From Laetmonice hystrix (lineage: Eukaryota): DNA of 64,000 nucleotides. The position numbers and the translations under genes are program-made. The stretch spans positions 29,700,001-29,764,000 of the forward strand of contig OZ249436.1 of the NCBI GenBank assembly GCA_965235115.1. The letters are read 5' to 3'. Below, piece by piece: positions 1,068 through 59,941 of the stretch (its first letter is position 1; every line of letters starts with the position of its first letter). The notes under the pieces were generated by a model that made no database searches, was not told the DNA's origin, and worked only from the letters and a program-made list of their open reading frames with translations.

Positions 1068-1349
1068 TCAAACGTTCCAATGTTTGGCCACATTATGGGC
1101 CATGTGGAAATGGCGGGCCTGGTTGCCCGATGTTGTGGCCGCATAATTACACAATGGACATTTGTACGGTCTCTCCCCAGTGTGGCTTCGGCTGTGTACT
1201 TTGAGGTGGTCTTTCCGGCTGAAAGTTTTGCCACAAACTGGGCACTCAAACCTGACAACGGATGGTCTCGGTGCCCCCTCAACACGACCGTAGGGAACAC
1301 TGACGATGTTATCCCAGTTGCCGTGACTCACTAAGTGTCCTCCACTTAT
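1068..1349 (-). CDS. Variable terminal exon V33, 2 C2H2 fingers
   Basis: atcttgcag|ATA AGT phase 0; [12 protein letters not shown]. Confidence 0.85.
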
Positions 1350-1649
1350 CTGCAAGATTCCCAACGGAAAACAAGTCAGTCAGAACTCCGCGCAACAGGT
1401 CGACACTACCGACCAAACAAAACCTAATCTAGTCTTCACAACGTCAATGGACTGCAAGCATCACCTGCCTATACACAGCCAACCCCATGGTCCAATACAG
1501 CGATGTTCCAACCATAACTCACCCAGGTAACATGGAGGCAACACATATCAATTATTATTCTAAAAATGCAACAAAAGCACTGCCGTGCAATTATGAGTGG
1601 GCCCACTCAAAACACCCCTCCGTTTCCACACATGAGCACCGCGCATTAT

Positions 1650-1931
1650 TTAGTGCCAACGGTCTGCTTCCGGGTGATGTTTTAATATGTGTGCCTTGAG
1701 GTGCACTTTCTGTGTTGATGCATAATCACAAGAAGGACACAGAAAGGGCTTCTCTCCTGTGTGAGTTCTATGATGACGAAGCAGATTGCTCCGCTTTGTA
1801 AAGCACTTTGCACACACCGAACACTGGAAGTGAGTTCCGCTGAATTCACTTTGAGTATCACTATCCAAAACCGGTTGTTGATTCATTGACTGTGTCGAAA
1901 GATGGCCACTTGCTATGATCGATGCCGCCAT
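1650..1931 (-). CDS. Variable terminal exon V32, 2 C2H2 fingers
   Basis: ctgttacag|ATG GCG phase 0; [12 protein letters not shown]. Confidence 0.85.
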
Positions 1932-2425
1932 CTGTAACAGGTCAAATAAAGAGTGTCAATGAATCAGTGACCATTATTTACCCTATATAATATGTTTTAT
2001 TACAAATGACGAGGGATGGTTGAACACCATGAGCAGTCCGTTAGTGGTATATTTCAGTCGGAGTCACGCAATACGACTGCGTTGTTCATGTAGAACCTGC
2101 CTTTCCCCACCGTTACTCTTCCTCCAGTCAATATCAGTTTTTTTTAACCATTCAAATAACTACCAATTTTTGTTTAATTTTCTACATTATAGCATATGAC
2201 AAAGACGGCTCCAATGCCCTCTGGCAACTCTGGTCAGGTACACGAACTGGCATTGGAGATGGGTTCATTTTCTAAACTGTTTTGCAGGATGTCTTATCCC
2301 CCGAGGGTACCAAGCACTATCCAGTCCAATGAAGACAAAGTCTCAGTATTAACGACACGAGTATCCTTTACAATGGTCCCAAAAAATATCCTTGGGACGT
2401 CTTTCTCTTGTTTTCCTTTTGCCTC

Positions 2426-2713
2426 CTAATTAATACCGGTATCCTTCTGCAATCCATGATGCCTGATTATGTGTTTGTTGAGGTTACTTTTGACTGCAGA
2501 CGCATAATGACACAATTCACATTCGAAAGGTTTCTCTCCTGTGTGAGTCCTATGGTGGACACGCAAATTCCTTCGGTTTTTAAATAATTTTGCACACAAT
2601 GAACAACGGAACTCATTGATCCTGGGTTCACTATAAGTATCAATATCCAAAACCGCTGCTGGATTCATTGACCGTCTCGAAGGATGGCCACTTGACATGA
2701 TCGATGCCGCCAT
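2426..2713 (-). CDS. Variable terminal exon V31, 2 C2H2 fingers
   Basis: ctgttacag|ATG GCG phase 0. Confidence 0.85.
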   Translation of the reverse strand: MAASIMSSGHPSRRSMNPAAVLDIDTYSEPRINEFRCSLCAKLFKNRRNLRVHHRTHTGEKPFECELCHYASAVKSNLNKHIIRHHGLQKDTGIN

Positions 2714-3397
2714 CTGTAACAGGCCAAATAGAGAGTTTCAATGAATCAGTGACCATATTTTACCATATGTTCTTTTACAAATGACGATGGATGGTTGAAA
2801 TACTGGGCGGTCTGTGTTAGTGGTATATTTTAGTTGCAGACAGGCAATATGACTGCCTTGTTCACGTAGAACCTTCTTCTTTTCCCCATGGTTATTCTTA
2901 CCATCTTTGACAAAGATGGTAAATGCTCTCTGGGAACTCTAGTCAGGTAGACCGACTAACATTCTAGGGTACCAAGAATTATCCAGTCCAATGAAGCACG
3001 GGTTTGACGCCACTTCCTGCTATTGGAAAGTACCCCCGGGTGATTTAAACATCATTGGCGTGGAGATACACGACAAGATTGCCCTATGTATGGAGGCAGT
3101 GAGTGAAACGTCATATCCAATCCAGCCAGGTAGTAGTGCATTATTGAGACATGCTTCTTTGGCGTCATATGTGCAAATATAAATTTCAGGTACTAAGGGA
3201 AACGTGTGAAGTGGAAAAATCAATCACCTAATTTTGCGTAATAAGGTAATTTATCAAATTATGGGACGCATTATGGCGTCCATCATGTCCAACACGTGAC
3301 ACATGCTACAGAATCGCTCCGTTTGACGTTCTAATTAAGATCACAACAAAGAGAGACACTGAGCTACTGCGTTATTGTATCAGGATTCACATGATAC

Positions 3398-57200: not shown

Positions 57201-58147
57201 TCAATCAGTCCTGGCTAAGGCCAATCTGTGGTGATAGCCATAAACACATCAAATATGCAAAAAAAAAGCCAAGTTCTAAATAACACCAGTTGGCATTTTG
57301 CTCAGTTCTAACAGATCCTACCAAATAAATTTTTCAAGTCGAAGACCCTTTCAATTTTCAAGAGGTAATTCAATTACCACTCTGACCACCAGCAACAGAA
57401 TTTTTAACTCATGTCCGCGATGTCAAAGACGCGGATTCCATTAGTCTGCTTTTCAATTTCAAGAAATGGACTAATTTTTTTTGTATAAAACAGGATTCCA
57501 TCACGGTGATCACCTATTTTGGCTGCCTGTCAATATGCGATTTAGCTATCTAGCTGCAAACCCCCATCAAAACCAAGTCGATAAAGTGGGGGATTTAACA
57601 CTCAAGATAAATTCTTAACTGATAAGAGATTCCACACTGACTTTCTAGAACACAAGTACTTTTTTGGTCCCCCTTGTTTGGTTGATTATACCAGAGCACT
57701 TCTTTTGCAGAAACCCTTCTAAGATACAAAGATGGAATATATCAAGTTTCAATAGTAATGTGCAGGTCCTACAAGTTATCCATGACACTGAAAGTAGCCC
57801 CAGTTCTTGCCTTCCACATTTTATAGCCCAACTCACAGCTTTTCATATAAAATTTTCATCCCTATTCCGAAAATTCTACCCAATTTTAACTTTCTAGTGT
57901 TACAGCAGGAAATTTGCTTCTAAAAGTATTATGAAAACCATCGAATAACAATCAGTTAGTGTCCTCAAGATATTACAGTGGTAGGTAAAATACACTAGAT
58001 CCAAAATAAATTTGCCACATATACGTGTATGCTTTCCAATTCAAAACCAATTTTCAAGCTGCATGCTGACAAACAAGGAAATATTTTTTTTATAAACGAT
58101 TTGTAAATTCCTTAAATTGCAGTCTGAAGGACAATGGCAGGACTATG

Positions 58148-58255
58148 GGGGGCGTTTCCCATCATGTTGTTACCGTGTCGTATCGCTAACGCCAATGTAT
58201 TTTCAATGGGTATTTTAACGCACGACAGGATAACGATAGATGAGAAATGCCCCTC
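58148..58255. repeat. Imperfect hairpin, MITE-like, in the first variable intron
   Basis: GGGGCGTTTCCCATC ... GATGAGAAATGCCCC inverted ends. Confidence 0.5.
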
Positions 58256-58472
58256 TGACTAACAAACAATTATAAAGTTCAGCAATCTTGTGTTTCAATC
58301 CTTGGCCATGCATGGCCTTGGGCCAAAACTGAACAACTCAAGGAACCCCCAATTCAAGGGTGAAAGAAAATAGATACCCAGAAGGCCATGATACACATTC
58401 CATCAAAGTCTCTTAGAACAGGTCTTTATCTATGATCAGTGACTTAGTTTAAAAAAAGCAAAGTACACTCAC

Positions 58473-59333
58473 CGAGTCCTGTCCTCCCGCAATTCCTGAT
58501 GGCGACTGCCACGAGGAGCAGCCCGGTTGTGACAAGTCGCCTCCCGATAGCTGACTTTCTCCCGGCTCTTGGAATGATGTGTGTGCTGCATGTGCTGCGA
58601 TGTCTCCAATTCCTGTTATGTTCGGCCAAGGATGTGGAATTCCTGCAGGTCTTTTATTAGGCGGTTCGTCCCATTCTCCTTCTTGTTTAAATGAAGCACT
58701 GTTTTCAAACTCACTATAGCTGCCATCTGTGGGTACGTCCCCACCCCCAGGAAAGGAATCACTTCCATAGTTTGTTTCTCCTAATGTTTGACTTTGGTTG
58801 AATGATCCCCTAAACCCTGATGAACTATGTGGTCGCCGCTGTGCCCTCCGTTTCCCAGCAACCATAGAGGCTGGCTGGGCCACACTTTCTGGCGAGTTTA
58901 AACCTGATGAACCAGTTATCATTACATCTTCGTCCTCCGAGGAAGCTTCATTAGCTTCCTTTTTTATTTTCACTGATGAAGGAATTGTGTCAGAACTGTC
59001 CTCTGCAGGACTTGCCTGGCTGGGACTCTGATTTTGACTATGCTGTTCTTGCTCTGCTTTCTCTGCCTCTGCAGCTAACCTCTCCTTTTCCTTTTCTGCC
59101 TCCTCTTTTTGTCTTTGGGCTTCAGCTTCTGCTGCCAATCGTTCAATGTAAGCATCGCTTTGGAACTTTTCACTGATGTGTAGGAAGAATACATCATTGT
59201 CATCTACTGCAACACCTAGTAGGCCCTCGACCCTTAGGTGATTCTCATACTGAAGGCTGTTCTTACACAGGAGTGTGACTGTGTCTAACAATAGATTCTT
59301 GACTCGTTCTTGATCTGGCTTCATAGTTTCCAT
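58473..59333 (-). CDS. Constant coding exon (287 codons): N-terminal alpha/beta-like domain, E/A/K-rich coiled coil, acidic Ser-rich linker
   Basis: ATG in AAGATGG context at 59333; acceptor tttttttcag at 59379-59381 (exon starts 59378, so the first part is 5' UTR); ORF runs into a GTGAGT donor after ...GGQDS; no zinc finger of its own. Confidence 0.9.
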
Positions 59334-59941
59334 CTTGGGTGCATCACACTGACATAGAAGAATTTTGAATTTGAATACCTGAAAAAAAGAAATTTAACTG
59401 AATTACAGCGTCACATAAATATTACCGCAGGACACAATCTTCAAATTTGTAAAGGCTAATTTTCAGTTTGCACACTTTTCTTCCTCTGTCAATTTAACAA
59501 TTTTAAGGCTTAAAGGTTTTAATCCGACTTCAAAATTCTCTGTACCCTTTAAAACAAATGACCACCGCCAGTGTGTACAGGCCAGGCACACATGCCGTGA
59601 TATCCTAAGCAAGTTAAAAAAGATTTGAACACAATTGGTGCTCAAATAGTTAAGATATTTCACTTTAGTGCCGGAGACTGCTTAGAGCCTCCTCAGCTGG
59701 TGGATGCCGCCATAGCGTCGACCAGCTCATTGGGCTAAACCTAGGCCTGATCAATCACAGCACGACTGCTCTCCAGTTTGGGAGGAACTAAAAACTGATG
59801 CACATGTTGCATTGAACAATTCAAAAGGTAGCGAACGTTGACAGCTTATAAGCCATATTTGTTAGAACATAGACGAAAACCATCGATAGTGATGAGGAAT
59901 GGCTAGTAATTAAGCCTACCGATATCAGGCTGCATAGATAT

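Follow-up and report, generated by a model that had tools for sequence, protein, structure and literature searches.

In a few insect BTB genes, which act in axon guidance and sexual behaviour, alternative last exons are known to exchange the DNA-binding part of the transcription factor. The variable ends of one of them, mod(mdg4), are of the FLYWCH type. Tandem arrays from which one exon is used per mRNA are also known from the clustered protocadherins and UGT1A (variable first exons) and from Dscam1 (internal exons). For lola, 23 isoforms (17 of them tested), 13 distinct finger sets and a diversity of motifs have been reported (PMC3668361). In mod(mdg4), one constant region is combined with about 31 alternative 3′ ends; the gene has five promoters, its exons occupy both strands, and trans-splicing is obligatory (PMC13490949). 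The TTK-type BTB domain is reported to be arthropod-specific (PMC11426971). Here we analyse a stretch of 64,000 nucleotides (nt), referred to as the window, from Laetmonice hystrix (assembly GCA_965235115.1, contig OZ249436.1, forward-strand positions 29,700,001 to 29,764,000). An earlier note, made from the letters of this stretch, had proposed a gene with a shared N-terminus and alternative zinc-finger ends, possibly convergent with lola and mod(mdg4). This proposal, i.e. one constant exon followed by alternative terminal finger exons, is supported by the anatomy of the locus, by chance controls, by an RNA-like data set (X4) in which both ends of the constant exon are used, by homologues in spliced form and by paralogues behind which the design recurs. 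We assign a probability of about 0.72 to the reading that this is one gene with a cis-spliced array, most of whose 33 cassettes are used.

The constant part is encoded by a single finger-less exon ahead of the array that ends at a phase-0 GTGAGT donor, as the earlier note had described. Its features are the following (all positions are those of the window, unless stated otherwise):

58473..59378, minus strand: constant exon, 906 nt, i.e. 45 nt of 5′ untranslated region (UTR) and 287 codons, ATG at 59333, finger-less
58467..58472, minus strand: phase-0 splice donor GTGAGT, exon/intron junction CTCG/GTGAGT
59160..59324, minus strand: conserved N-terminal domain, constant-exon residues 4-58, of the type MKPDQERV...

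The acceptor of the constant exon is a plain poly-T acceptor, unlike those of the cassettes. A donor-pattern scan of 59379-64000 retrieved no first exon; the transcript would start upstream of the constant exon. Pfam assigned no family to the domain, neither in the 287-amino-acid constant part nor in 15 family members, and likewise gave no BTB match, in agreement with the claimed absence of BTB.

An open reading frame (ORF) of the six-frame translation was counted as a cassette if it contained two or more C2H2 fingers together with a TGEKP-type linker. The window contains 34 short finger ORFs, 33 intact and one decayed, and the translation confirmed that all are on the minus strand. The intact cassettes span positions 54287 (first acceptor) to 1068 (last stop); by pattern, 26 of the 33 have two fingers and seven have three. 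No strict linker match was found on the strand opposite the constant exon within the window. Because 170 kb to the left and 30 kb to the right of the window contain no extra finger cassettes, the array is complete, and the previous open-ended count ("at least 33") can be replaced by 33 plus one decayed copy. Listed from the constant exon onwards, the members are:

53985..54287, minus strand: cassette 1, two fingers, no Met ahead of the fingers
51975..52274, minus strand: cassette 2, two fingers, second in-frame AG at 52349
50284..50592, minus strand: cassette 3, two fingers, no Met ahead of the fingers, X4 contig over the 3′ part
49667..49936, minus strand: cassette 4, two fingers
49122..49400, minus strand: cassette 5, two fingers
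about 48552..48809, minus strand: decayed cassette, similar to cassette 6, with a stop and frame breaks
47980..48297, minus strand: cassette 6, three fingers, X4 contig
47252..47614, minus strand: cassette 7, three fingers, no Met ahead of the fingers, X4 contigs
45910..46263, minus strand: cassette 8, three fingers, duplicate group 8-11
44947..45300, minus strand: cassette 9, three fingers, no Met ahead of the fingers, group 8-11
42525..42878, minus strand: cassette 10, three fingers, group 8-11
41502..41855, minus strand: cassette 11, three fingers, no Met ahead of the fingers, X4 contig on the 3′ end, group 8-11
40512..40826, minus strand: cassette 12, three fingers, X4 contigs, one unspliced across the acceptor
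38989..39264, minus strand: cassette 13, two fingers, group 13-18
38200..38472, minus strand: cassette 14, two fingers, group 13-18
37400..37672, minus strand: cassette 15, two fingers, group 13-18
36343..36639, minus strand: cassette 16, two fingers, group 13-18
34331..34717, minus strand: cassette 17, two fingers and a third, atypical Cys/His unit, group 13-18
32990..33274, minus strand: cassette 18, two fingers, group 13-18
23431..23703, minus strand: cassette 19, two fingers
21805..22083, minus strand: cassette 20, two fingers, 57 nt from stop to next acceptor
21445..21747, minus strand: cassette 21, two fingers
20817..21083, minus strand: cassette 22, two fingers, next acceptor 75 nt on
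20472..20741, minus strand: cassette 23, two fingers, no Met ahead of the fingers, next acceptor 68 nt on
20149..20403, minus strand: cassette 24, two fingers
19215..19490, minus strand: cassette 25, two fingers, no Met ahead of the fingers
18572..18892, minus strand: cassette 26, two fingers
17991..18251, minus strand: cassette 27, two fingers
7781..8068, minus strand: cassette 28, two fingers
7327..7608, minus strand: cassette 29, two fingers
6548..6835, minus strand: cassette 30, two fingers, near-identical to cassette 31
2426..2713, minus strand: cassette 31, two fingers, near-identical to cassette 30
1650..1931, minus strand: cassette 32, two fingers
1068..1349, minus strand: cassette 33, end of the array, two fingers, no Met ahead of the fingers

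All 33 intact cassettes have an in-frame [CT]TNCAG; the first Cys follows it after 18-45 codons, and an in-frame stop precedes it by 4-32 codons. Choosing CAGs in frame is circular, and therefore a fixed, frame-blind score was applied to the 346 AGs located 30-200 nt upstream of the first Cys. For 29 of the 33 cassettes, the top-scoring AG is in phase 0 and followed by an open frame, compared with 9.9 expected for random picks (maximum 22 in 200,000 draws) and 13.2 expected after codon shuffling (maximum 19 in 300), in accordance with the earlier view that the frames open right after a phase-0 CAG. After near-duplicates had been collapsed, the value was 20 of 24. The frame-blind test missed cassettes 14, 17, 20, and 22, and in cassette 2 it preferred the alternative in-frame AG at 52349. 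The previously noted branch-like CTGAC/TTGAC is far more frequent than in shuffled sequences: YTGAC is present 8-45 nt upstream of 16 of the 33 acceptors (shuffle mean 2.1, maximum 7), and the more general YTRAY at the same distance upstream of 24 (shuffle mean 11.4, maximum 21 in 2000).

The cassette acceptors also resemble one another. The motif TT[TG]GnnnTnTTnCAG, which was derived from these sites, is found in 23 of the 33 and elsewhere in the window 0 times in sense and once in antisense orientation. TTTGG-like letters are typical of positions -15 to -11, and a T is invariant at -8. Two sampled paralogue arrays have different letters upstream of their acceptors. The likeness might reflect common descent or an array-specific splicing signal. 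A coding explanation of the consensus (period-3, reading F-G-x-L-Q) was rejected, because stops are present four codons upstream in cassettes 1, 3, and 25.

Between the acceptor and the first Cys, 16 of the 33 cassettes contain no Met, and in eight the entire open frame ahead of the first Cys is devoid of one (including the cassette at 41855), which bears out the statement that many cassettes have no ATG near their start. The gaps between a stop and the next acceptor are as short as 57, 68, and 75 nt in three cases. These gaps and the eight Met-less cassettes leave no room for separate genes. Hidden non-finger cassettes were not indicated, as TnTTnCAG outside the 33 acceptors occurs 38 times in sense and 39 times in antisense orientation, i.e. 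without an excess. Linker exons or private upstream exons were considered and discarded: GTRAG between cassettes occurs 33 times in sense and 11 times in antisense orientation, and Markov controls yielded 37-43, indicative of a strand skew.

Four data sets, X1-X4, were examined over positions 40401-60400, which include 12 cassettes. X1-X3 cover introns continuously and are thus DNA-like, whereas X4 has a depth of 0 in four bins of intron 1 (55075-57742). X4 contig 32 (974 nt, depth 38.8) matches 58473-59378 exactly and has 39 and 29 other letters at its ends. It resembles a spliced exon, and the donor of the constant exon is used. X4 pieces are listed at no fewer than five of the 12 cassettes (3, 6, 7, 11, and 12) or their 3′ flanks, with depths of 8.8-29.5. 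One of these pieces, 40750-41157, is unspliced across the acceptor at 40826.

Joins of the constant part to fingers were also found in homologues. With a loose pattern, 41 of 46 database ORFs run into the intron just past the equivalent of the donor. In four pairs (P0038/P0053, P0063/P0065, P0311/P0152, and P0375/P0426) the two members are identical up to the donor, and one reads into the intron while the other is joined to fingers. P0427 is the genomic cassette for the P0375/P0426 pair, with its acceptor (...FQ/) at the join. P0364 (fingers) and P0366 (none), whose ends differ beyond an equivalent constant part, were considered as an isoform pair; they are 54% identical, probably stem from different species, and were not counted. 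In L043, the constant ORF is fused to a finger, and a further finger ORF with an in-frame CAG of its own lies downstream. This sequence is read as a putative mRNA whose 3′ UTR still contains a cassette that was not used.

The same design is repeated in the genome (627 Mb, 35 contigs). A search yielded 37 matches to the domain, most of them on the chromosome of the window, and 14 of 18 paralogue ORFs examined have a phase-0 donor near their end. At least nine paralogues are followed by finger ORFs on the same strand. Among the best 150 finger matches, all 50 located on C1 have a paralogue on the same strand no more than 100 kb upstream of them; the zones behind paralogues defined in this way make up about 2% of each C1 strand. 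The first 100 (by position) of 1,809 strict linker matches are behind four paralogues, with values of 10, 69, 2, and at least 19. The paralogue with 69 strict linker matches in 73 kb (G000:C1:29172071-29253013; L006, L041) probably has the largest array seen. The strict pattern finds 27 linkers of the window, and from this yield the largest array probably has more than 69 cassettes. Two 10-kb samples of paralogue arrays contain 16 and 15 finger ORFs, with 0 in antisense orientation, and the top AG is in frame and followed by an open frame for 23 of the 31. In a tree of 64 finger pairs, which has few columns and many open forks, the cassettes group by array and by neighbour (6 label changes versus 26.6 after shuffling), which argues for local tandem duplication. 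Paralogues are also present in divergent or convergent pairs or small clusters (G000:C1 20758650-20797464, 47051904-47055190, and 29327427-29427022). The earlier note overlooked that the locus is one member of a multi-gene family with a conserved N-terminal domain.

According to the proposed mechanism, 33 acceptors of one pre-mRNA would compete for the single phase-0 donor at 58472, and one of them would be joined to it. The product would have 371-415 amino acids: the shared 55-amino-acid domain would be followed by an acidic linker of low complexity and by two or three fingers that are specific to the cassette, which also supplies the stop. Isoforms would be mutually exclusive, because there is a single donor and every cassette closes the reading frame; cassettes beyond the chosen one could remain in the 3′ UTR. 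The array would have grown by local tandem duplication of an acceptor together with its exon. We infer that the constant exon is spliced to multiple partners, and all 33 acceptors may be in use.

The ratio of nonsynonymous to synonymous differences (pN/pS) of the fingers is 0.35 over 24 non-independent pairs; judged from these comparisons, the cassette fingers are under purifying selection. In duplicates, the last 15 intron bases are 87-100% identical, compared with 45-73% at -105 to -45, and they represent the best conserved non-coding part. Indel lengths in the leaders, i.e. the segments between acceptor and fingers, reflected alignment noise at the DNA level and were uninformative. At silent sites, cassettes 8-11 and 30-32 differ less in their leaders than in their fingers (0.04 versus 0.67 for 30 versus 32), which suggests that the 5′ end of these exons is subject to gene conversion or to constraint at the nucleotide level. 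At helix positions -1, 2, 3, and 6, the 33 cassettes have 33 different combinations, some of which are one residue apart, and the pattern mis-registers at least two fingers. Since the recognition-helix residues differ in all 33, different DNA targets are likely, as far as can be predicted from these residues.

Several observations weigh against the proposed cis-spliced array. X4 was classified as RNA from its coverage pattern and represents one sample of one study. The junction check proposed earlier, from 58473 to the acceptors, retrieved the exact borders of the constant exon in X4, but no joint to a cassette is among the 15 of 76 X4 joints listed. Similarly, the proposed check of related loci revealed the repeated design behind paralogues and the four spliced homologue pairs, but only one finger partner per pair, and no constant part with different finger ends was found among 417 proteins or clusters read afterwards. 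Among the metagenome loci, 21 extend 3 kb or more downstream; nine of these have one finger ORF and 12 have none, showing that arrays are not universal in the family. The leaders are under little amino-acid constraint (pN/pS 0.88), and 17 of the 33 contain a Met, so that these cassettes could in principle be translated alone. Lastly, AATAAA/ATTAAA is absent from 15 of the 33 downstream gaps, which would fit a choice of acceptors rather than of poly(A) sites.

Could the constant exon be joined to the cassettes in trans, in part or as a whole? As in mod(mdg4), groups of cassettes would then have their own promoters and be joined to the constant exon of another transcript. In mod(mdg4), 31 isoforms are produced in this way without complementary sequences (PMC13490949). 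The distance of 57 kb from the donor to the last acceptor, past 32 competitors and three mobile elements, and the X4 contig that is unspliced across 40826 also speak for this reading. In addition, no docking-type pairing was found that would account for a choice in cis: in a Dscam1-type scan for selectors close to the acceptors, the best 30-nt windows of intron 1 (about 275 windows) were only 1-3.5 kcal/mol better than shuffles, and no reverse complement of the acceptor motif is present near the donor. However, 33 of 33 cassettes, 31 of 31 in the two paralogue arrays, and the first 100 linker matches share the strand of their constant exon, in contrast to mod(mdg4), which uses both strands; this favours cis-splicing, and read-through 3′ UTRs, compare L043, account for the unspliced contig equally well. 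Trans-splicing is therefore regarded as unlikely. The earlier note had named cassette promoters as a refutation of its proposal, which was too strong: isoforms with a shared N-terminus would survive, because mod(mdg4) isoforms are trans-spliced from independent promoters (PMC13490949).

That only a few cassettes are used, while most are superfluous tandem copies within 3′ UTRs or introns, is compatible with the listing of X4 pieces at five or more of the 12 cassettes covered, with the one decayed copy, and with the single partners in homologues. This seems quite unlikely in view of the open frame, intact fingers, and acceptor that are retained in 33 of 34 copies despite deep divergence, the finger pN/pS of 0.35, and the conservation of the acceptor ends beyond that of the flanks. 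The third alternative, i.e. independent small finger genes with their own promoter or a non-coding first exon, to which the finger-less gene is merely adjacent, would be in line with tandem C2H2 clusters, which are common in lophotrochozoans (cephalopods; PMC9068888), and with the Met that follows the acceptor in 17 of 33 cassettes. It is very unlikely: eight cassettes have no Met ahead of the fingers and some gaps measure only 57-75 nt, a uniform phase 0 would be pointless, donors between cassettes show no excess above the strand skew, the constant ORF ends at a donor that is in use in X4, and the short finger ORFs on C1 occur only behind domain paralogues (best 150 finger and first 100 linker matches). 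Thus, a single gene that is spliced in cis to most of its cassettes remains the preferred reading.

A word-index search with the domain (residues 4-58) retrieved 46 proteins, and 1,292 representatives were found at E ≤ 0.001. An AlphaFold2 model of the domain has a helix (6-26) and a two-strand hairpin, with a mean predicted local distance difference test value (pLDDT) of 82.8. Foldseek with the predicted domain gave 0 matches at E ≤ 0.001, and the best VIA-align result was weak (Z 4.0, root-mean-square deviation 3.6 over 56 residues). There was neither a PDB sequence match nor an Atlas feature match for the domain, which is not evidence for a new fold. The domain is probably a protein-interaction module with the role that BTB has in lola, because it is small, has a hydrophobic hairpin, and is doubled in one chain in several relatives (P0066, P0067, P0068, P0069, P0081, P0109, P0190, and P0191); it might self-associate. 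In P0366, P0442, and P0443, a finger-less, basic, coiled-coil-like C-terminus follows the equivalent donor, showing that terminal exons need not encode fingers.

The named relatives are from the annelids Ridgeia piscesae and Paralvinella palmiformis. KAK2160293.1 and KAK2175659.1 of R. piscesae consist of the constant part alone, whereas in KAK2144882.1 of P. palmiformis the constant part is followed by several fingers in a string. The top ranks of an Atlas structure search are one mostly annelid and four molluscan clusters, with template-modelling (TM) scores of 0.78-0.85 over 60 amino acids. Two of the molluscan clusters bear C2H2 fingers and have the automatic names "isoform X9" and "isoform X25", suggesting that annotation pipelines already record many isoforms. 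The family is thus present in annelids and, as predicted from models, probably in molluscs, the link to which is a similarity of predicted structures (TM 0.78-0.79 over 60 amino acids) and not an alignment. Neither the domain nor the array is described in the database names of the annelid and molluscan models; one automatic name implies BTB, which is wrong for the aligned part as far as tested.

Mobile elements have been inserted between several cassettes. A recently inserted Ty3/gypsy-type long terminal repeat (LTR) retrotransposon occupies 24189-32818, between cassettes 18 and 19 and on the strand of the gene; its 199-bp LTRs are identical, the target duplication measures 4 bp, and both the gag (31181-30252) and the pol (30270-25390) frame are open. 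The LTR element at 8904-17607, between cassettes 27 and 28, has identical 923-bp LTRs, a 4-bp target duplication, and a 1010-amino-acid frame (16665-13633) with a zinc knuckle and a protease, in which no reverse-transcriptase family was matched. Between cassettes 30 and 31, a 2.85-kb element (3393-6241) has 742-bp direct terminal repeats and a 386-amino-acid plus-strand frame (4194-5354) without a Pfam match; it has 57 matches in the genome, including 23 further near-full-length copies of 93-99% identity, three of them in tandem on C21. About 7.6-10 kb to the left of the window, L021 contains a minus-strand frame of 780 amino acids, the N-terminus of which resembles a DNA-transposon protein by eye.

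No description of the family was found in the open-access literature, which excludes subscription papers, and the accessible parts of an oyster (PMC12111275) and a cephalopod (PMC9068888) paper contain none. A report on lophotrochozoan zinc-finger genes with arrays of alternative exons may exist, but searches aimed at it retrieved none. The chance that the family has already been described in print outside open-access collections is considerable, although somewhat below one half. At slightly less than even odds, we tentatively propose that annelids and molluscs have an undescribed transcription-factor family that is marked by the unnamed 55-amino-acid N-terminal domain and has evolved the lola design independently. 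Its paralogues would number in the dozens, and in several of them the array would have 30 to 80 or more terminal finger exons; about ten genes in one genome would thus encode hundreds of DNA-binding isoforms. Gene predictors would call the constant exon hypothetical and the cassettes tiny genes, and published C2H2 counts for these animals would in part be exon counts. If this is true, the design would have arisen a second time, without BTB, in annelids and probably in molluscs, which would indicate that it evolves repeatedly, and at a larger scale. The locus would also offer a compact system to study how, over 57 kb, one donor selects a single terminal acceptor out of dozens, and, in spiralians, a candidate source of regulators that are specific to cell types. 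Because the annelid models examined are finger-less or merge cassettes into strings, the proteins are likely to be missing from annotations and single-cell analyses.

The comparison with the known systems shows both shared and distinct features. As in the BTB zinc-finger genes of the TTK group (lola, broad, ttk, and fru), one in-frame donor is followed by tandem terminal finger exons. The likeness to lola, and also to broad, tramtrack, and fruitless, extends to the combination of a constant N-terminal part with alternative C-terminal finger sets, which are mostly pairs. In contrast to the lola group, a domain of about 55 amino acids with a helix and a hairpin replaces BTB, the whole constant coding part is in one exon, the linkers are of the canonical TGEKP type, the array has more members, and finger ORFs follow at least nine paralogues. 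Also, the distribution is not that of the arthropod TTK group, as the named relatives are annelid and molluscs are linked by fold only. The absence of BTB and the arthropod specificity of the TTK-type BTB make convergence the simplest reading. The number of alternative ends is similar to that of mod(mdg4) (33 versus 31), but mod(mdg4) has BTB and exons on both strands, whereas here all cassettes are of the C2H2 type and 33 of 33 are on the strand of the constant exon. A tandem choice would be shared with the protocadherins, UGT1A, and Dscam1, from which the locus differs in that the variable exon is the last one and encodes the DNA-binding part. The locus would function like lola and mod(mdg4) but is not a member of their group; the design is already known, while its carrier and its scale appear to be new.

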